This document shows, piece after piece, positions 12,950 through 20,139 of a stretch of DNA of 64,000 nucleotides. Source of the stretch: Escherichia coli (GTDB taxonomy: Bacteria > Pseudomonadota > Gammaproteobacteria > Enterobacterales > Enterobacteriaceae); assembly GCF_017348835.2 (NCBI RefSeq), contig NZ_CP071375.1. The stretch is one strand, 5' to 3'. The notes under the pieces were generated by a model that saw only the letters and a list, made by a program, of their open reading frames with translations, made no database searches and had not been told where the DNA came from. Made by a program: the position numbers and the translations under genes. Every line of letters begins with the position of its first letter. Position 1 is the first letter of the stretch.

Positions 12950-14302
12950 ATGACTAAACACTATGATTACATCGCCATCGGCGGCGGCAGCGGCGGTATC
13001 GCCTCCATCAACCGCGCGGCTATGTACGGCCAGAAATGCGCGCTGATTGAAGCCAAAGAGCTGGGCGGCACCTGCGTGAATGTTGGCTGCGTGCCGAAAA
13101 AAGTGATGTGGCACGCGGCGCAAATCCGTGAAGCGATCCATATGTACGGCCCGGATTATGGTTTTGATACCACTATCAATAAATTCAACTGGGAAACGTT
13201 GATCGCCAGCCGTACCGCCTATATCGACCGTATTCATACTTCCTATGAAAACGTGCTCGGTAAAAATAACGTTGATGTAATCAAAGGCTTTGCCCGCTTC
13301 GTTGATGCCAAAACGCTGGAGGTAAACGGCGAAACCATCACGGCCGATCATATTCTGATCGCCACAGGCGGTCGCCCGAGCCACCCGGATATTCCGGGCG
13401 TGGAATACGGTATTGATTCCGATGGTTTCTTTGCCCTTCCTGCTTTGCCAGAGCGCGTGGCGGTTGTTGGTGCGGGTTACATCGCCGTTGAACTGGCGGG
13501 CGTGATTAACGGCCTCGGCGCGAAAACGCATCTGTTTGTGCGTAAACATGCGCCGCTGCGCAGCTTCGACCCGATGATCTCTGAAACGCTGGTCGAAGTG
13601 ATGAACGCCGAAGGCCCGCAGTTGCACACCAACGCCATCCCGAAAGCGGTAGTGAAAAATGCCGATGGTAGCCTGACGCTGGAGCTGGAAGATGGTCGCG
13701 GTGAAACGGTGGATTGCCTGATTTGGGCGATTGGTCGCGAGCCTGCCAATGACAACATCAACCTCGAAGCCGCTGGCGTTAAAACCAACGAAAAAGGCTA
13801 TATCGTCGTCGATAAATATCAAAACACCAACGTTGAAGGTATTTACGCAGTGGGTGATAACACGGGTGCAGTGGAACTGACACCGGTAGCAGTTGCAGCG
13901 GGTCGCCGTCTCTCTGAACGCCTGTTTAATAACAAGCCGGATGAGCATCTGGATTACAGCAACATTCCGACCGTGGTCTTCAGCCATCCGCCGATTGGTA
14001 CTGTTGGTTTAACGGAACCGCAGGCGCGCGAGCAGTACGGCGACGATCAGGTGAAAGTGTATAAATCCTCTTTCACCGCGATGTATACCGCCGTCACCAC
14101 TCACCGCCAGCCGTGCCGCATGAAGCTGGTATGCGTTGGACCGGAAGAGAAGATTGTCGGTATTCACGGCATTGGCTTTGGTATGGACGAAATGTTGCAG
14201 GGCTTCGCGGTGGCGCTGAAGATGGGTGCAACCAAAAAAGACTTCGACAATACCGTCGCCATTCACCCAACGGCGGCAGAAGAGTTCGTGACAATGCGTT
14301 AA
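12950..14302 (+). CDS. gor: glutathione reductase
   Basis: 450-aa [30 protein letters not shown]...[13 protein letters not shown] (redox-active disulfide motif). Confidence 0.95.
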
Positions 14303-14309
14303 ATGTTAA

Positions 14310-14339
14310 AGGGCTAAGAGTAGTGTGCTCTTAGCCCTT
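14310..14339. terminator. bidirectional terminator between gor and dinQ
   Basis: gggctaagag...ctcttagccc palindrome immediately after the gor stop. Confidence 0.6.
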
Positions 14340-14355
14340 AATTACGTTTCCGCTA

Positions 14356-14439
14356 TCAGTTCAGAAGCTGAAGCAGAAAGCGGATCAGTTCCAGCAGCGC
14401 AATTAACGCCCCAAGAACGATGATTGCTTTATCAATCAC
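14356..14439 (-). CDS. dinQ: DinQ type I toxin peptide (27 aa, GTG start)
   Basis: Minus-strand translation gtg att gat aaa gca atc atc gtt ctt ggg gcg tta att gcg ctg ctg gaa ctg atc cgc ttt ctg ctt cag ctt ctg aac tga gives (M)IDKAIIVLGALIALLELIRFLLQLLN, matching recalled DinQ. Confidence 0.8.
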   Translation of the reverse strand: MIDKAIIVLGALIALLELIRFLLQLLN

Positions 14440-14632
14440 CCGTTTTCTCCATGCGATGGAGTGAGAATGCATCCGCTTACTCATCCACTGCCTGTCACGG
14501 CGCATGTCTCATTGTTAGATAAGAACTCTCTCACTCCGGCCAGAGCATCAGTTAACGGCACCACCCGTACTTCTGACCAGGACTTTGAAAGCGTTTATGC
14601 GCATTACCAGAGTGAAAATGCCTCAGAGCTAA

Positions 14633-14648
14633 CTGGATAATCATACAG
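14633..14648. promoter_or_regulatory. LexA box (CTG-N10-CAG) in the dinQ promoter
   Basis: ctggataatcatacag matches the SOS box consensus CTGT-N8-ACAG closely; located upstream of dinQ on its strand. Confidence 0.65.
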
Positions 14649-14677
14649 TACATTCAGGTTATAAAACCAGCATGTCC

Positions 14678-15773
14678 TGTGTAAGTTCACAGAGATATTG
14701 CAATTGCCTCCGGATAAGTAAGGGGAGATTGCACTATGCAAATGCAGCATCTGATGGTTGGCTATCCTAAGTACTACCAAACGGCCGATTATGCGTTGAG
14801 GCTTTCAGTGATGGCTGATATAGCAACAATGAGAATGAAGGCTCTGCACTTCTGGGATAAACACGGTATTTCTGCAGCTTCTGAAGCCTTTGGCGTGTCC
14901 TGCCGCACGCTTTACTGGTGGCGTCAGTTACTGAACAAGGAAGGACCTGAGGGGCTAATCCCGCACAGTAAGGCACCTCTGGTGCGACGAAAAAAACACT
15001 GGCATCCCGATGTGCTGAAAGAGATTCGACGCCTCAGGACAGAGCTGCCGAACCTCGGTAAAGAGCAGATTTTTGTTCGCCTGAAGCCCTGGTGCGAACA
15101 GCGCTATCTGGCCTGTCCGAGTGTTTCCACCATCGGCAGAATGATCGCTGCCGCACATGATAAAATGCGGATGATACCTGTGCGTCTGGGATCGCGGGGG
15201 AAGGCACTGCTTGTCAAAAAGCGGTCTGCCAAACCCCGCAGGCCAAAGCACTACCGCCCGGTAAAGACAGGTGAGCTCATTGGGATGGACGCCATTGAGC
15301 TCAGAATGGGCGAACTGCGTCGCTATGTCATCACCATGATCGACGAATGCAGCAATTACGCGCTGGCGCTGGCTGTGCCGTCACTCAACAGTGATATCGT
15401 CAATCACTTCTTCAGCCGCGCAGCCCGGTTGTTCCCGGTCGGTATCAGCCAGATAATCACAGATAACGGAAAAGAGTTCCTGGGAAACTTCGACAAAACG
15501 CTGCAGGAAGCCGCTATCAAACACCTCTGGACCTATCCCTACACGCCAAAAATGAACGCTATCTGTGAACGTTTTAACCGGACGTTAAGAGAGCAGTTTA
15601 TTGAATTTAATGAGATTTTACTCTTTGAAGATCTGGCGCTATTTAACCAGAAGCTGGCGGAATATCTGGTGCTGTATAACAGCAAAAGACCCCACAAGGC
15701 GCTCGCACTAATGACGCCCGTGGAATATATTTTAAAAGAGAATAAAAATTGCAATATGTGGTGGACCCATACA
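14678..15773 (+). mobile_element. insertion sequence, single-ORF DDE (rve) transposase, IS481-family-like, about 1.1 kb
   Basis: Imperfect ~28-bp terminal inverted repeats (left tgtgtaagttcacagagatattgcaatt; right reverse complement tgtatgggtccaccacatattgcaatt) flanked by a 5-bp direct repeat tgtcc (14673-14677 and 15774-15778). Boundaries are uncertain by a few bp. Confidence 0.6.
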
Positions 15774-15818
15774 TGTCCTTGCAATAGTTTCAGTATGGTA
15801 TTAGCATTGATGCGTTAG
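14736..15818 (+). CDS. DDE-type transposase (integrase core domain; N-terminal HTH)
   Basis: 360-aa ORF with HTH (GVSCRTLYWWRQ) and catalytic residues consistent with D (GMDAIE), D (ITDNGKEF) and E (ICERFNRTL) about 36 aa later; the ORF reads 45 nt past the inferred right end of the element. Confidence 0.7.
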   Translation: MQMQHLMVGYPKYYQTADYALRLSVMADIATMRMKALHFWDKHGISAASEAFGVSCRTLYWWRQLLNKEGPEGLIPHSKAPLVRRKKHWHPDVLKEIRRLRTELPNLGKEQIFVRLKPWCEQRYLACPSVSTIGRMIAAAHDKMRMIPVRLGSRGKALLVKKRSAKPRRPKHYRPVKTGELIGMDAIELRMGELRRYVITMIDECSNYALALAVPSLNSDIVNHFFSRAARLFPVGISQIITDNGKEFLGNFDKTLQEAAIKHLWTYPYTPKMNAICERFNRTLREQFIEFNEILLFEDLALFNQKLAEYLVLYNSKRPHKALALMTPVEYILKENKNCNMWWTHTCPCNSFSMVLALMR

Positions 15819-15895
15819 ATGATGGCATTCTCACTCCAGCCAGAGCCACCAACTCTGGGCTGCAAAGTAAAAAACCGACGCAAAGTCGGTTTTTT
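15812..15895 (+). ncRNA. agrA: agrA-like small RNA (repeat copy with intrinsic terminator)
   Basis: Shares the gttagat...ctcactccagccagagccaccaactc...aaaaaccgacgcaaagtcggttttttt core with the downstream copy; candidate -35 ttgcaa (15779-15784) and -10 tagcat (15802-15807) with 17-bp spacer. Confidence 0.6.
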
Positions 15896-16042
15896 TACAT
15901 CCGGATTCGGACAAGGCTTAATATGACGATGACCCAGTGAAAGTATATAAATCGTCACTGCGATATATACCGAAGTGCCCCCTCCGCCAGCTGAAGAAAT
16001 CGCTAATTCTTGCAATGTTAGCCACTGGCTAATAGTATTGAG

Positions 16043-16127
16043 CTGTTAGATAAGAGCTCTCTCACTCCAGCCAGAGCCACCAACTCAGGGCTGGAAAGTA
16101 AAAAACCGACGCAAAGTCGGTTTTTTT
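16043..16127 (+). ncRNA. agrB: agrB-like small RNA (antisense regulator of dinQ)
   Basis: Second tandem copy; -35 ttgcaa (16010-16015), 17-bp spacer, -10 tagtat (16033-16038); about 33 nt (gttagataagagctctctcactccagccagagc) complementary to the dinQ leader copy at about 14510-14542; ends in hairpin + T7. Confidence 0.65.
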
Positions 16128-16161
16128 ACGTCCTGATTCAGACCTCCTTTCAAATGAATAG

Positions 16162-16241
16162 CCAACTCAAAATTCACACCTATTACCTTCCTCTGCACCT
16201 ACGCATTCGTTAAACCATATATGTTTTTGACTTATCCGCTT
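16162..16241 (+). promoter_or_regulatory. ars promoter/ArsR operator remnant (retains -35 TTGACT), downstream part replaced
   Basis: ccaactcaaaattcacacctattaccttcctctgcacctacgcattcgttaaaccatatatgtttttgacttatccgctt closely matches the K-12 Pars region as I recall it; similarity ends after ccgctt. Confidence 0.55.
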
Positions 16242-16242
16242 T

Positions 16243-16292
16243 GGTTTGTAACGCTGGCTGCGCTGGCGCTACGTCTCTCTTTCACTTTGTAA
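16243..16292 (+). pseudogene. arsB: arsB 3'-terminal remnant (last ~16 codons, ...FVTLAALALRLSFTL*)
   Basis: In-frame reading of ggtttgtaacgctggctgcgctggcgctacgtctctctttcactttgtaa ends in a stop 12 nt before the arsC ATG, the expected arsB-arsC arrangement; no arsR or arsB body precedes it. Confidence 0.5.
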
Positions 16293-16304
16293 TGAGATAC
16301 TGAT

Positions 16305-16730
16305 ATGAGCAACATTACCATTTATCACAACCCAGCCTGCGGCACATCGCGTAATACGCTGGAGATGATCCGCAACAGCGGTACAGAACCGACCATTATC
16401 CATTATCTGGAAACACCACCAACGCGCGATGAACTGGTAAAACTCATTGCCGATATGGGGATTACCGTACGCGCGCTGCTGCGTAAAAACGTCGAGCCGT
16501 ATGAGGAACTGGGCCTTGCGGAAGATAAATTTACTGACGAGCGGTTAATCGACTTTATGCTTCAGCACCCGATTCTGATTAACCGTCCGATTGTGGTGAC
16601 GCCGCTGGGAACTCGCCTATGCCGCCCCTCGGAAGTGGTGCTGGAAATTCTGCCAGATGCGCAAAAAGGCGCGTTCTCCAAGGAAGATGGCGAGAAAGTG
16701 GTTGATGAAGCGGGTAAGCGGTTGAAATAA
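16305..16730 (+). CDS. arsC: arsenate reductase (glutaredoxin-coupled ArsC)
   Basis: 141-aa ORF MSNITIYHNPACGTSRNTLEMIRNSG... with catalytic Cys12 context (HNPACGTSRN). Confidence 0.95.
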   Translation: MSNITIYHNPACGTSRNTLEMIRNSGTEPTIIHYLETPPTRDELVKLIADMGITVRALLRKNVEPYEELGLAEDKFTDERLIDFMLQHPILINRPIVVTPLGTRLCRPSEVVLEILPDAQKGAFSKEDGEKVVDEAGKRLK

Positions 16731-16778
16731 AGCGGCTATATCCCCCCCACAGGTTGTTAGAAAAGTGCGCTTTATTTA

Positions 16779-16880
16779 TGTCGGATGCGACGCTGGCGCG
16801 TCTTATCCGACCTACAAGGTTATGAAAATTCGATGAATTGTATGTTATTTGTAGGCCTGACAGGCGTAGCGCATCAGGCG
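16779..16880. repeat. REP/BIME palindromic units downstream of arsC
   Basis: tgtcggatgcgacgctggcgcgtcttatccgacctaca and tgtaggcctgacaggcgtagcgcatcaggcg. Confidence 0.7.
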
Positions 16881-17356
16881 ATTTTGCTATTTACACATTA
16901 CTCCCTGCGTGAGATTCCAATTATCGCGTCCAGCATGGTGTATCAGTGATCTGCTTAGTGATCAGCGATACAGTGCAGCAGTTTAAAGACGTACTGGATT
17001 ATGATTTATCAGTGCTTTACACAACAAATTATTCAATAATTATAAGATACCTTAACCCATTTTATTATTACACATCTAAAACATCACAAAAATATCATTT
17101 CACACACTATCGGAGAACATCATAACTTTTTAAAATGAGCGCTTTTTGATAGTTGTTAACGTTTTCTTTTACGATACTATCAATGCCCTTTTTTATACAC
17201 AAATATTACCGGGTGGAGATAAAAGGGAAGTCAAAGGTAATTATATCAGGAAGATATGACGCATGATATTTATTGTGCGTAGAAGAAAATCCATTCCTGC
17301 TCTAATTATCCAATTTAAAAATCTTAGCATAAAACAGATAATGAATAAGGAATGTT

Positions 17357-18472
17357 ATGTCAATTGACTTTACCCCAGGTGTGATAAATACATATCACGG
17401 CGATATTTATAACCGCACAACAGATACCGACAATGTTAAAACACCAGACACACCGATGTGGCCTTGTGATAATCGGGAAGAACAACAACCCATTAATTCC
17501 ACATTCTCTGGAGAAGGATACAACCCTGAACAATATGATTTAGCGCGGCAACACCTCCCACAAATTTATGCGTGCCGCACGAACACCAAATATACAGATG
17601 CAGACTACTCAAAAGTTGTGGCTCAACTTGTAAGTCTTATTACTAACATTGAATCGATAAGTTCGACACCACTTACGCGGCAGGCACAGGAAATACTTAA
17701 TCAAATTAATAACATTAGATACGAAAAGAACAAAAGTGCTGAATGTCGAATCATTGTTGTCGCTAATCCTAAACCCGACAAGGCAATCATAACTAAAATT
17801 AGCGTAGAAGAGGGAATACCAGTAAGATTCAGTGTCCAAACCATGTTTTCAGATACTAATTTTATTGCTGAACAACGAGCTGACTTACCGACTAATATAA
17901 AAGATATTCAAATCCTGTATCAAAAAATGACGAAGTTATATATTGAACACAGTGAAAATAAAAACAGGATGAAAGTCTTTGCCGGAACCAACTTTATTGA
18001 TTTCAATATGACAGGACAGAACCTGTCCGGGTTCGTTCTAACTTTGTCAAGGTTTTATTTCGAAGATCTACTTAATATAAATTTCACTGACGCAAATTTA
18101 GGTGACACTATTTTTTCACATAAAGAACACCCTACCCCCAAATTATATAAAGACGAACAATATCTTGACAAACAAATCGAAGGTTTATTTTCAACATTAT
18201 TAACCATTAATGACAACTTTTTACGAGCAAAAGCGGAAATTGCTTCGACAATAATTAAATTCTTAGAGGCCAGGATAACCAATCTTTCATACAATGACAT
18301 ATTAAAATATCAGCAAGAATTCCAAAAACAATGTTATAAGCAAGTTAAAGCCTTTACGACACTCTCCCGATACAATAAAATTCAAACATGGGCAGAAATG
18401 TCTGAATATCAATTCGAAGTATTTCAATACGAGACGCTTAACCCAAAAAAATGTCACGTACGCCTTATTTAA
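17357..18472 (+). CDS. AT-rich hypothetical protein with a pentapeptide-repeat tract (intact yhiS-like gene)
   Basis: 371-aa ORF; residues [46 protein letters not shown] place F/L/M at every fifth position for about 9-10 repeats, usually preceded by N/D (A[DN]LXX pattern). Position between arsC and slp matches yhiS. Confidence 0.6.
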
Positions 18473-18826
18473 AGAGGCCACTTCCTAATGAAAAAGATAT
18501 ATATTATGGGGTGGAAATAGAAATACCATCTGGCAAAAGAATTCGCTTATCAAATCATTATCAGAATATAATACCATAATATTGATTATTAGCACTTTAT
18601 AATTATTGAATAAAAATATATTTTATGTAATTTTAAAACAAAGGATTATATTATGGGGCGATGGATACTCATGTCACGCCCCAAAATCAATGGAATTGAA
18701 CTAAACAGAAGGGATATAAACATCAGACAGGTTTACGTTACTATCAGGCATATCGCCTCAGAATCAGATGAAAACTATAAAGAAATATCTATTATGGTTT
18801 TAATATTTGTTGATAAGGATAGTAAC

Positions 18827-19393
18827 ATGAACATGACAAAAGGTGCACTCATCCTCAGCCTTTCATTTTTGCTTGCCGCATGTAGTTCAATTCCGCAAAA
18901 TATCAAAGGCAATAACCAACCTGATATTCAAAAAAGTTTTGTTGCTGTTCATAACCAGCCGGGGTTATATGTTGGTCAACAAGCGCGCTTTGGCGGGAAG
19001 GTTATCAACGTTATCAATGGCAAAACGGATACGTTGTTAGAAATCGCTGTATTACCGTTGGATAGCTATGCGAAACCTGATATTGAAGCCAACTATCAGG
19101 GCCGACTGCTCGCCAGACAAAGCGGCTTCCTTGATCCAGTGAACTATCGTAATCACTTTGTTACCATCCTCGGTACCATTCAGGGTGAACAACCCGGCTT
19201 TATCAATAAAGTCCCGTATAACTTCCTGGAAGTGAATATGCAGGGCATCCAGGTGTGGCATTTGAGAGAAGTGGTTAATACCACCTATAACCTGTGGGAT
19301 TACGGCTATGGTGCATTCTGGCCGGAACCGGGCTGGGGTGCGCCTTACTACACCAATGCGGTGAGTCAGGTAACACCTGAGCTGGTCAAATAA
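18827..19393 (+). CDS. slp: starvation-inducible outer-membrane lipoprotein Slp
   Basis: ORF 18653..19393 trimmed to in-frame ATG at 18827 giving MNMTKGALILSLSFLLAACSS (lipobox LAAC), 188 aa. Confidence 0.85.
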   Translation: MNMTKGALILSLSFLLAACSSIPQNIKGNNQPDIQKSFVAVHNQPGLYVGQQARFGGKVINVINGKTDTLLEIAVLPLDSYAKPDIEANYQGRLLARQSGFLDPVNYRNHFVTILGTIQGEQPGFINKVPYNFLEVNMQGIQVWHLREVVNTTYNLWDYGYGAFWPEPGWGAPYYTNAVSQVTPELVK

Positions 19394-19548
19394 CACCACC
19401 GAAAGATGCAGATGCTTTCTCAGCATCTGCATCGTGCATTACATCAAATTAATACACAGCAAGCTAACTATTATTACTATAAGCCCTGTCCTGTTAATTA
19501 CCTTTGGCAAACTGATTATAAAGTTAATGTCCGCACCAGGAGTCGGTT

Positions 19549-20079
19549 ATGTTTCTTATAATTACCAGGGATACGATGTTCTTCACCGCGATGAAAAACA
19601 TTCTGAGTAAAGGTAATGTCGTTCATATACAGAACGAAGAAGAGATCGACGTAATGTTGCATCAGAATGCCTTCGTCATTATTGATACATTAATGAATAA
19701 TGTATTTCATTCTAATTTTCTCACTCAAATTGAACGATTAAAACCTGTCCATGTCATTATTTTCTCCCCCTTTAATATTAAACGCTGCCTGGGGAAAGTG
19801 CCGGTGACCTTTGTTCCGCGGACTATCACTATCATTGATTTTGTCGCACTCATCAATGGCAGTTACTGCTCTGTGCCTGAAGCGAATGTGTCACTTTCGC
19901 GCAAGCAACATCAGGTTCTGAGCTGCATTGCGAATCAAATGACAACGGAAGATATTCTGGAGAAACTGAAAATATCGCTAAAAACGTTCTACTGCCATAA
20001 ACACAATATCATGATGATCCTCAATCTTAAGCGGATCAATGAGCTGGTACGCCATCAGCATATTGATTATCTGGTATGA
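19549..20079 (+). CDS. dctR: LuxR-family transcriptional regulator DctR (YhiF)
   Basis: 176-aa ORF with C-terminal LuxR-type HTH; synteny slp-dctR. Confidence 0.85.
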   Translation: MFLIITRDTMFFTAMKNILSKGNVVHIQNEEEIDVMLHQNAFVIIDTLMNNVFHSNFLTQIERLKPVHVIIFSPFNIKRCLGKVPVTFVPRTITIIDFVALINGSYCSVPEANVSLSRKQHQVLSCIANQMTTEDILEKLKISLKTFYCHKHNIMMILNLKRINELVRHQHIDYLV

Positions 20080-20139
20080 ACGATTGATCAATATAAAGAG
20101 GCCCAGCAATAAATAGCCAGACCTCCCGTTAATTATACG

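Follow-up and report, generated by a model that had tools for sequence, protein, structure and literature searches.

The window analyzed here is a 64,000-nucleotide stretch of an Escherichia coli contig (NZ_CP071375.1) that harbors, on its plus strand, an open reading frame of 371 residues (17357–18472, taken from the list of open reading frames), which starts with an ATG, is preceded by a Shine-Dalgarno-like AAGGA 5 nt upstream of this ATG (17347–17351, plus strand, found by sequence inspection) and has its C-terminus cut off by a frameshift. The frame is bordered by arsC (16305–16730) on one side and by slp on the other, which is the position of yhiS and bears out the name given to it in an earlier sequence-only reading. 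The slp ATG is placed at 18828 by a constant offset to L001, and the slp promoter and slp itself occupy the sequence from about 18733 onward. The yhiS product is 98% identical to a cluster of 371-residue proteins (P0001) and 93% identical to a cluster of 407-residue proteins (P0009). Of 5426 complete E. coli genomes, 5417 carry the locus, derivatives of K-12 among them, and they do so in a constant setting made of arsC (or a permease gene), yhiS and slp. Compared to K-12, the window differs in its upstream context by the presence of an IS481-family transposase and the absence of arsRB. A scan of positions 13000–21000 with Rfam revealed no RNA element within or beside yhiS, an uncharacterized gene of nearly every E. 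coli that borders the well-studied acid-fitness island. With a maximal hydropathy of 0.99 over 19 residues and an N-terminus that contains many T, D, N, and P over its first 60 residues but no Sec signal, YhiS is predicted to be a soluble protein devoid of signal peptide and membrane segment.

The GC content drops to 0.30–0.40 across about 16900–18800, compared to 0.50–0.56 in the flanking regions. The AT-rich region upstream of yhiS (16950–17356, plus strand, GC 0.295–0.35) corresponds to the arsC/yhiS "promoter island" of K-12. Its part starting from about 17040 is common to all E. coli alleles, with the ars operon or the permease gene upstream, and homology with genomes devoid of the ars context begins at query position 241–244, i.e., at about 17040 in the window. 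At the other end, a variable AT-rich spacer delineated by sliding diversity (18580–18732, no strand assigned) closes the divergent yhiS islet. Several weak sigma-70-like sites are scattered over 17016–17342; promoter-like sites are not significantly enriched (15 found versus 9.5 ± 3.6 expected), and the promoter and terminator scan retrieved no terminator. In K-12, the 470-bp arsC/yhiS promoter island was bound by H-NS in all ChIP studies and linked to predicted foreign genes, and the insH11/slp region is also listed as an H-NS-bound promoter island in the Shavkunov/Ozoline set (PMC3661553). H-NS/StpA chromatin was described at yhiS (bioRxiv 10.64898/2026.02.10.705075), the gene was not induced by overexpression of YdeO (PMC4222967), and the only test found of the Keio deletion and the ASKA clone of yhiS revealed no phenotype (PMC8170033); all of this published work was carried out on the IS5-disrupted K-12 copy. 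The suggestion that yhiS sits in AT-rich DNA of the type silenced by H-NS agrees with both the GC drop and the H-NS-bound K-12 counterpart (PMC3661553), and by analogy with K-12 the islet of the window is probably silenced by H-NS.

The usual length of YhiS is 407 residues, as in two protein clusters that count 8964 and 2855 sequences. Nucleotide alignment located a −1 frameshift site in a homopolymer of seven adenines (A7; 18445–18451, plus strand), which is A8 in PE164, a near-identical genome, and alleles with an open frame of 407 codons carry eight bases at this tract, namely A8, CA7, TA7 or CGAAAAGA. Due to the change from A8 to A7, which falls at codon 366 and brings the frame to termination seven codons further on, yhiS stops after 371 residues and loses a conserved tail of 41 codons. 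The gene had been considered intact, a claim refuted by this slippage and by the resulting removal of the C-terminus. The stranded ancestral tail (18451–18579, plus strand) is still open upon translation, shifted into the +1 frame with respect to the gene that precedes it, and it belongs to the best-conserved parts of the family at both the protein and the DNA level. The 74-nt haplotype surrounding the tract is combined with A8 in 10–11 complete genomes, whereas no more than one of 5426 combines it with A7. An assembly error is a less likely origin of A7, given that the exact 371-residue protein of the window is present on eight public contigs, the allele thus recurring in independent assemblies. 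Most likely, an A was recently lost from A8, and the window carries a null or weakened allele, since the conserved tail is gone.

This copy is one among many independent disruptions of yhiS across E. coli, which comprise insertions of IS5 and IS1, losses of one base within or beside a T-run, the frameshift in the A-run, and a large deletion. The T-run is a T6 homopolymer within the last pentapeptide of the repeat module discussed below (18111–18116, plus strand; nucleotide alignment and sequence) and is intact in the window; a T was lost in or beside it in O157:H7 strain 4276 and strain 639, and EC361 lost the C that directly follows it. In K-12, IS5 is inserted a few codons upstream of the same run, and the 5′ fragment of the gene ends after 747 nt. 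The split by IS5 seen in the sequence of the K-12 derivative DH5a and described in the literature (PMC8170033, PMC11677980) shows that the gene was correctly described as an IS-split pseudogene in K-12. K-12, O157:H7, and the strain of the window thus present three different disruptions, and forms of 371 residues occur on four distinct allele backgrounds (the window, P0001, P0022, and P0027). A single match over at least 80% of the locus is missing in 1091 of the 5417 complete genomes (about 20%), a count that takes in the large deletion and IS-split copies. PGAP frequently labels yhiS a pseudogene, and the pseudogene calls of this annotation pipeline at the locus proved inconsistent. As the K-12 and O157:H7 copies are disrupted, experiments should rely on an intact 407-residue allele, for instance from PE164 or MLI023K1.

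YhiS contains a pentapeptide-repeat-like module covering residues 206–277 (17972–18187, plus strand), in which about 10 pentapeptides are followed by a cap, as delineated by periodicity, profile matches, and alignments. A phenylalanine, leucine or methionine recurs at every fifth residue, 10 times in succession, between residues 208 and 253. A run of this period was matched in 0.055% of 20,000 shuffled sequences when F, L, M, I, and V were allowed and in none of 20,000 with F, L, and M only (p ≤ 5e-4). Of the nine residues that precede a hydrophobic center (i−1: N, N, N, V, R, D, N, N, I), six are N or D, a significant enrichment over the background N+D frequency of 13.5% (binomial p = 3.5e-4), so that the period-5 pattern noticed from the sequence alone over about 50 residues, with its preceding N/D, is real. 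The inward-facing i−2 residues are less regular (T, F, Q, F, S, E, I, A, T), being small in four of nine repeats and Q or E in two. Among 90 distinct alleles, the core repeat positions are invariant or subject to conservative swaps (F/L, L/M).

Profile comparisons point to the same region. Against the PDB, the family profile retrieved two proteins and no others, Rfr32 (E = 0.005) and TL15 (E = 0.096); both matches fall at residues 202–254 and have marginal scores. Six clearly non-E. coli library matches, each of them a genuine pentapeptide-repeat protein, gave E-values of 6e-5 to 9e-4, which are marginal too, as such library-wide values add up several weak matches each, their targets being repetitive; the six proteins align to residues 204–284 and include the cap LY...Y..K.L.G. 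These distant matches themselves score on the NCBIfam models of Qnr, MfpA, PipB, PipB2, and SopA-type proteins. On the contrary, the check proposed for the pentapeptide claim was negative, as neither PF00805 nor its Pfam relatives matched the window protein at E ≤ 10 or 20 alleles at E ≤ 0.1. Two AlphaFold2 runs, one with the 371-residue window form and 20 sequences and the other with the repaired 407-residue form and 57 sequences, reached a mean pLDDT of 38 and 40, with values of 23–32 over residues 200–260, where no beta-helix was drawn; such low values result from an alignment restricted to E. coli alleles of 75–98% identity. Foldseek matches of this low-pLDDT model in the PDB (Hsp70, ribosomal proteins; TM of about 0.07–0.12) were disregarded. 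The description of YhiS as a pentapeptide-repeat protein stands only for a stretch of about 50 residues that aligns specifically, if weakly, to genuine members; with a single module in 371 or 407 residues, it does not stand in the sense of Qnr or MfpA. Residues 206–277 or so appear, from their sequence, to carry one short degenerate pentapeptide-repeat module with a putative beta-helix fold, and the conserved core of YhiS would thereby be one pentapeptide-type module invisible to curated models.

Outside of this module, YhiS has few relatives. All named full-length homologues belong to E. coli or Shigella, and an exhaustive HMMER search of 1.84 billion cluster representatives returned one full-length cluster plus fragments. 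No relative was found in phages by tblastn, and the plasmid matches corresponded to three mislabelled chromosomes of 4.8–4.9 Mb rather than to true plasmids. PADLOC, PHROGs, Pfam, and NCBIfam gave nothing usable, and the absence of any nameable similarity noted from the letters alone holds for the latter two. Matches to PorH (NCBIfam, E = 0.023), phrog_26779 (E = 0.072), DDE_Tnp_1_3 (Pfam, E = 0.033, in 1 of 20 alleles), and DUF5894 (Pfam, E = 0.04) were treated as chance. The NCBIfam search listed no family at all for the window protein at E ≤ 1, PorH being the sole entry for two 407-residue alleles at E ≤ 10. Exact scans of 100,044 species-representative genomes with peptide patterns and with a 20-mer invariant in 11 alleles detected no YhiS homologue, the sole match (L013) being an unrelated metagenome-assembled genome without similarity to E. 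coli; these scans are weak evidence of absence, since the E. coli representative itself was unmatched. Judging from these searches, yhiS is an apparent orphan gene, detected only in E. coli and Shigella.

Sequence diversity is high within the islet. Nucleotide diversity amounts to 0.04–0.12 over 17037–18732, compared to 0.004–0.013 from 18733 onward, a more than 10-fold fall, and the alleles of yhiS are mosaic. The dN/dS ratio is 0.41, based on 63.8 synonymous and 116.2 non-synonymous differences, and is significantly below 1 (Fisher p = 2e-7). The ratio drops to 0.18–0.27 over residues 181–300, and no other part of the gene is as constrained as the module. A sliding dN/dS scan gave no reliable window above 1, the only such value (residues 76–105) being based on very few synonymous changes. 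Between deep alleles, the frame of 407 codons remained open despite 138–180 substitutions in DNA of 33% GC, whereas a random placement of these substitutions would be expected to create 7–8 stop codons and left the frame open in at most 0.06% of simulations. The gene thus seems to evolve under weak purifying selection, and a dN/dS of 0.4 together with many knock-outs would also fit a gene that most lineages are already in the process of losing by drift.

We consider, with a probability of roughly 60%, that yhiS is a real, dispensable orphan gene of E. coli and Shigella that encodes one pentapeptide module and that is frameshifted in the window. According to this explanation, the gene would be housed in an AT-rich islet of about 1.7 kb that separates arsC from slp on the margin of the acid-fitness region, and H-NS/StpA would coat this islet and keep it essentially silent under laboratory conditions, if K-12 can serve as a guide. 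The ancestral product of 407 residues would comprise a polar N-terminus rich in T, D, N, and P followed by an alpha/beta region predicted with low confidence, then a module of about 70 residues whose 10 or so degenerate pentapeptides would suffice for a quadrilateral beta-helix of 2 to 2.5 turns, with the motif LY-x4-Y-xDK-x-I-x-G-L as its cap, and finally a helical C-terminal region and the conserved tail of 41 residues. The module resembles the repeated unit of large secreted or anchored pentapeptide-repeat proteins, and it may offer, as a short and rigid beta-helical element, a protein-binding surface between two orphan domains. It would hardly be shaped as a DNA mimic, since mimicry of the Qnr/MfpA kind needs about four times as many repeats plus a dimer. 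The yhiS copy of the window is a modest and rather ordinary curiosity, not an intact new pentapeptide-repeat protein.

The main competitor of this explanation is that yhiS never had or no longer has a function, and represents decaying foreign DNA that drifts neutrally under H-NS silencing with the period-5 pattern as a leftover. The many independent knock-outs, among which IS5, IS1, three frameshifts associated with homopolymers and the large deletion, would be expected in this case, as would the one-fifth of complete genomes devoid of one match over most of the locus, a dN/dS that is high for E. coli, a divergence 2–10 times that of neighboring genes, the lack of phenotype in the test of the Keio and ASKA constructs (PMC8170033), and the frequent pseudogene label given by PGAP. 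However, a dN/dS that is significantly below 1 and close to 0.2 in the module is difficult to reconcile with neutrality, as is the survival of the frame through all these substitutions, and clusters of 407-residue proteins dominate the protein collection (8964 + 2855 + 539 and further members), so that pure decay is unlikely. At the opposite end, YhiS might be the founder of an E. coli-specific family organized around one minimal pentapeptide beta-helix, silent under H-NS, maintaining deeply divergent mosaic alleles and switched off time and again at two homopolymers, which would act as a conditional and fast-evolving interaction factor facing a host, a phage or a competitor rather than being a leftover; we regard this more ambitious proposal as quite improbable.

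It is also very unlikely that YhiS is a pentapeptide-containing type III effector, or the remnant of one, related to PipB/PipB2 or SopA/NleL/EspX, for which the LEE or ETT2 system would be the delivery route and the polar N-terminus the secretion signal. Such a role would fit the composition of the first 60 residues and the absence of a Sec signal, the pentapeptide modules of PipB, PipB2, and SopA-type effectors, on whose models the distant matches score, as well as the AT-rich, H-NS-silenced and variable nature typical of effector genes. But YhiS itself matched none of the corresponding NCBIfam models (NF011743, NF011744, NF007264, and NF011904), HECT effectors included, no secretion-system gene is linked to yhiS within the window, and the locus is nearly universal in complete E. 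coli genomes, even in derivatives of K-12, which have no working type III secretion system.

Very little credit can be given to a contingency locus, where slippage at T6 and A8/A7 would switch yhiS on and off and diversity would stem from diversifying or balancing selection, for example by phages or the host. Unrelated alleles do show recurrent frameshifts within or beside these two tracts, the 371-residue forms arose on four allele backgrounds, and the mosaic alleles reach a diversity of 0.05–0.12, compared to 0.005 in slp. Nevertheless, no window has a dN/dS convincingly above 1, dS rises along with dN, a pattern anticipated for AT-rich genes of low expression, PADLOC gave no match, and the A7 form is rare compared to its A8 counterpart. 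Moreover, tracts of 6–8 bases are short for phase variation.

The least probable proposal is that YhiS is a DNA mimic of the Qnr/MfpA/AlbG type that binds gyrase or topoisomerase IV and guards the enzyme against quinolones or other poisons: residues 204–254 do align to genuine pentapeptide-repeat proteins, and the distant matches score on the Qnr and MfpA models, but the repeats account for about 50 of 371 or 407 residues, compared to almost the whole of Qnr and MfpA (about 180–220 residues, 8–10 coils), the remainder being predicted as orphan alpha/beta and helical sequence, and the gene is probably silenced and is often lost. Nothing ties yhiS to a topoisomerase or to quinolone resistance, and no new mechanism is revealed.

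Among the closest known systems is the yhiS gene of K-12 itself (b3504, UniProt P37635, described as a pseudogene or an uncharacterized protein), which occupies the same arsC-slp locus and belongs to the same 407-residue family. Its 5′ 747 nt are 94% identical to the copy of PE164, itself near-identical to that of the window; in K-12, an IS5 breaks the repeat module after codon 249, whereas the window has no IS and is frameshifted at codon 366. The islet as a whole resembles H-NS promoter islands by its AT-rich upstream block, H-NS binding being known from K-12.

With Qnr, MfpA, and AlbG, YhiS has only the chemistry of the repeats in common. Qnr and MfpA consist almost wholly of about 35–40 pentapeptides that build rod-like dimers of the size of B-DNA. 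YhiS has about 10 repeats rather than about 40 as well as additional orphan domains, and matched neither the Qnr (NF033086) nor the MfpA (NF000349) model of NCBIfam (window protein at E ≤ 1, two 407-residue alleles at E ≤ 10); with about 70 of 407 residues, its module is too short for a Qnr-like mimic. Like PF00805 proteins such as Cyanothece Rfr32 (PDB 2f3l) and Arabidopsis TL15 (PDB 3n90), YhiS presents about 10 tandem x-[N/D]-[L/F/M]-x-x units, and it aligns without gaps to both over 44–53 residues, at the E-values given above. Unlike these proteins, it has no Pfam match, its i−2 positions are degenerate, the repeats form about 13% of the protein, and the fold is putative. Finally, environmental bacteria encode large pentapeptide-repeat proteins of modular build (P0154, P0155, P0158, P0159, and P0164) in which the module has a counterpart. 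They count 800–1200 residues with 3–11 modules and signal or anchor sequences, one of them matching the NCBIfam model of the PEP-CTERM sorting domain, whereas YhiS has no signal peptide and a single module flanked by unrelated domains. Their module mostly recurs every 65–69 residues and closes with LYSTxSYxxKxLxG, and residues 206–277 of YhiS align to single copies of it without a gap and with 28–31% identity, including the cap LY...Y..K.[LI].G.

yhiS is a known, uncharacterized gene restricted to E. coli, and the window carries a frameshifted allele of it. The frame lies at exactly 17357-18472 (+), with the length of 371 aa that the sequence-only reading had given; it starts with ATG, preceded 5 nt upstream by the Shine-Dalgarno sequence AAGGA. 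It follows arsC (16305-16730) and is itself followed by slp, dctR and chuS, the setting of yhiS in E. coli, so the name proposed from the sequence is the right one. The K-12 disruption had also been stated correctly, since DH5a, a K-12 derivative, is annotated with two yhiS pseudogene fragments separated by IS5, and K-12 yhiS (b3504, P37635) is described as a pseudogene for an uncharacterized protein, disrupted by an insertion element (PMC8170033, PMC11677980). The strongly AT-rich block was equally apparent, GC being 0.30-0.40 across ~16900-18800 vs. 0.50-0.56 in both flanks.

Several features were observed around this block. A 360-aa ORF at 14736-15818 (+), between dinQ and the agrA/agrB sRNAs, is annotated as an IS481-family transposase in PE164, a near-identical E. 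coli genome. Two strong Rfam AgrB matches at 15815-15898 (108 bits) and 16046-16129 (100 bits), both (+), probably correspond to agrA/agrB, which regulate dinQ as antisense RNAs, and the first of them starts within the final 4 nt of the transposase ORF. arsC stands alone since arsR and arsB are missing from the window, compared to arsRBC in K-12; just 3' of it, REP-like palindromes contain a sub-threshold naRNA4/REP-type match at 16779-16811 (+) (31 bits vs. a gathering score of 59.5). Directly after dctR lies chuS (20140-21168, -), followed by chuA and shuT; the strain therefore carries a heme-uptake cluster, which K-12 does not have at this position.

The gene had been thought intact, which did not hold: an A7 instead of an A8 tract at 18445-18451 cuts the frame to 371 aa vs. 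the common 407. In public data, the 407-aa clusters comprise 8964, 2855, 539, 394 and 190 member sequences, whereas the 371-aa clusters are minor (222, 7, 4 and 2 members). Both forms are collinear as far as LNPKK, after which the long form continues with MSYAPYLKR...HYQNIIP and the short one with CH(V/A/T)(R/H)LI-stop. PE164, the closest complete genome, has eight A's and an otherwise identical coding sequence, and the ancestral frame is still open 3' of the tract in the window, ending at 18579 with SNHYQNIIP. In other alleles whose 407-codon frame is open, the tract reads A8, CA7, TA7 or CGAAAAGA. The A7 may come from a misassembled homopolymer in the window sequence, but the exact 371-aa protein is found on eight public contigs under several accessions. 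Given these contigs and the counts of the 74-nt haplotype around the tract (A8 in 10-11 and A7 in at most one of 5426 complete genomes), the slip is probably real, recent and rare. The truncation likely matters, as the missing C-terminal tail is among the best conserved stretches of YhiS in both protein and DNA; without it, the product of this strain is probably inactive or weakened. Pseudogene calls at the locus differ from genome to genome: in two compared loci, L001 (6558-7674) and L011 (917-2033), PGAP labels yhiS as frameshifted despite uninterrupted 407-codon frames, apparently by comparison with a 371-aa reference.

Among 11 aligned yhiS alleles from complete genomes, pairwise dN/dS was 0.3-0.5 with dS up to 0.31, and the deepest pair differed at 63.8 of 248.5 synonymous and 116.2 of 972.5 non-synonymous sites, a dN/dS significantly below 1 (Fisher p=2e-7). 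Random placement of the observed substitutions at 33% GC predicts 7-8 stop codons, and the 407-codon frame remained open in at most 0.06% of the simulations. Because of this low ratio and the rarity of open frames, the allele sequences indicate that selection protected the frame throughout their history. Residues 181-300, which include the helix before the pentapeptide-like module, the module itself and two helices after it, are the most constrained (dN/dS 0.18-0.27). yhiS is nevertheless clearly dispensable to E. coli. IS5 interrupts it in K-12 and IS1 in an O25:NM strain. O157:H7 strain 4276 and strain 639 have each lost one T of the T6 run (18111-18116), and EC361 has lost the C immediately 3' of it. 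The A-run slip occurs in at least four allele backgrounds, and a deletion leaves only ~380 nt of the locus.

Of 5426 complete E. coli genomes, 5417 carry the locus, always on the chromosome; no single match covers at least 80% of it in 1091 of these 5417, among them the large deletion and IS-split copies. All source-named homologues belong to E. coli or Shigella, and neither phage nor true plasmid relatives were found. In 100,044 species-representative genomes, exact-pattern scans found nothing, which is weak evidence of absence as the E. coli representative was missed as well.

Nucleotide diversity among the 11 alleles reaches 0.04-0.12 over 17037-18732 and 0.004-0.013 from 18733 into slp; in one genome pair, divergence is 11.1% in yhiS vs. 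3.4% in gorA, 5.9% in arsC, 2.8% in dctR and 1.1% in slp. Diversifying selection is a less likely source of this diversity, as a sliding scan of yhiS revealed no window with a reliable dN/dS above 1. Since dN and dS are both raised, we rather read it as relaxed constraint combined with the high synonymous rate to be expected when an AT-rich gene is poorly expressed; mosaic alleles would have arisen by recombination. The adjoining slp and its promoter (~18733-19394) are unusually uniform (diversity ~0.005), the changeover from the diverse yhiS islet occurring within ~100 bp, and the Slp accession WP_001057453.1 is identical in 11 of 12 genomes inspected.

In K-12, the 470-bp arsC/yhiS region is a "promoter island" linked to predicted foreign genes, on which every ChIP data set considered shows H-NS, the IS5-slp interval being a further island (PMC3661553). 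yhiS is also listed among sites of hairpin-like chromatin kept by StpA/H-NS (2026 preprint, bioRxiv 10.64898/2026.02.10.705075), and YdeO overexpression induced slp-dctR but not yhiS (PMC4222967). The same AT-rich block is kept in the window from ~17040 and, by analogy with K-12, H-NS may silence yhiS in this strain. Inside the gene, an antisense promoter-like site at 18171-18142 (-) is near-consensus (TTGTCA-18-TATAAT, 11 of 12 matches); AT-rich genes bound by H-NS often contain sites of this kind.

The period-5 pattern noticed in the protein is real and conserved. When residues 209-258 are written in fives, F, L or M occupies ten consecutive fifth positions, F208 included, a run reached in 0.055% of 20,000 shuffles when counting FLMIV and in none when counting FLM. 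N or D precedes the hydrophobic centre in six of nine repeats (p=3.5e-4), and across 90 distinct 407-aa alleles the centres are invariant or exchange only F/L or L/M. Only four of nine repeats have a small residue at the inward-facing i-2 position. Pfam, proposed as a check for PF00805, gave no pentapeptide family for the window protein, nor for any of the 20 alleles compared with it, and the NCBIfam models of Qnr, MfpA, PipB, PipB2, SopA and HetL did not match YhiS. The claim that no similarity could be named thus stood for these two collections, but other searches gave weak matches. phmmer against all PDB sequences gave eight weak matches, five of them pentapeptide beta-solenoids, all over residues 205-254; with a family profile only Rfr32 (2f3l, E=0.005) and TL15 (3n90, E=0.096) remained, both pentapeptide-repeat proteins. 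HMMER, run exhaustively over 1.84 billion cluster representatives, retrieved one full-length cluster (P0009, the 407-aa form), fragments mostly >60% identical to it, and six matches of another kind (E 6e-5 to 9e-4), all confirmed as pentapeptide-repeat proteins. Two AlphaFold2 runs yielded mean pLDDT of 38 and 40 (23-32 over the module), and Foldseek found no meaningful match with this low-confidence model. From these comparisons we conclude that YhiS probably contains a single degenerate pentapeptide module, weakly supported and previously unannotated, whose length would give about 2 to 2.5 beta-helix turns. The observation made from the sequence was thus partly confirmed and its interpretation partly supported: a pentapeptide module is present, but the whole protein is not built of such repeats.

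YhiS is predicted to be soluble, without signal peptide or membrane segment, with orphan sequence on both sides of its single conserved module, which may fold into a short, rigid beta-helix whose surface binds a partner. YhiS could be a type III effector, but nothing supports this role: it matches none of the effector models, and genomes carry yhiS whether or not they have secretion systems. A Qnr/MfpA-style DNA mimic is unlikely, since such mimics need about four times the length of the YhiS module and neither model matches. Five of the six pentapeptide-repeat proteins matched by HMMER are large proteins of environmental bacteria (P0154, P0155, P0158, P0159 and P0164) that share a module repeated mostly every 65-69 residues, in which pentapeptides end in LYSTxSYxxKxLxG; residues 206-277 of YhiS align to single modules of these proteins without gaps at ~30% identity, residues 263-277 falling on the cap motif.
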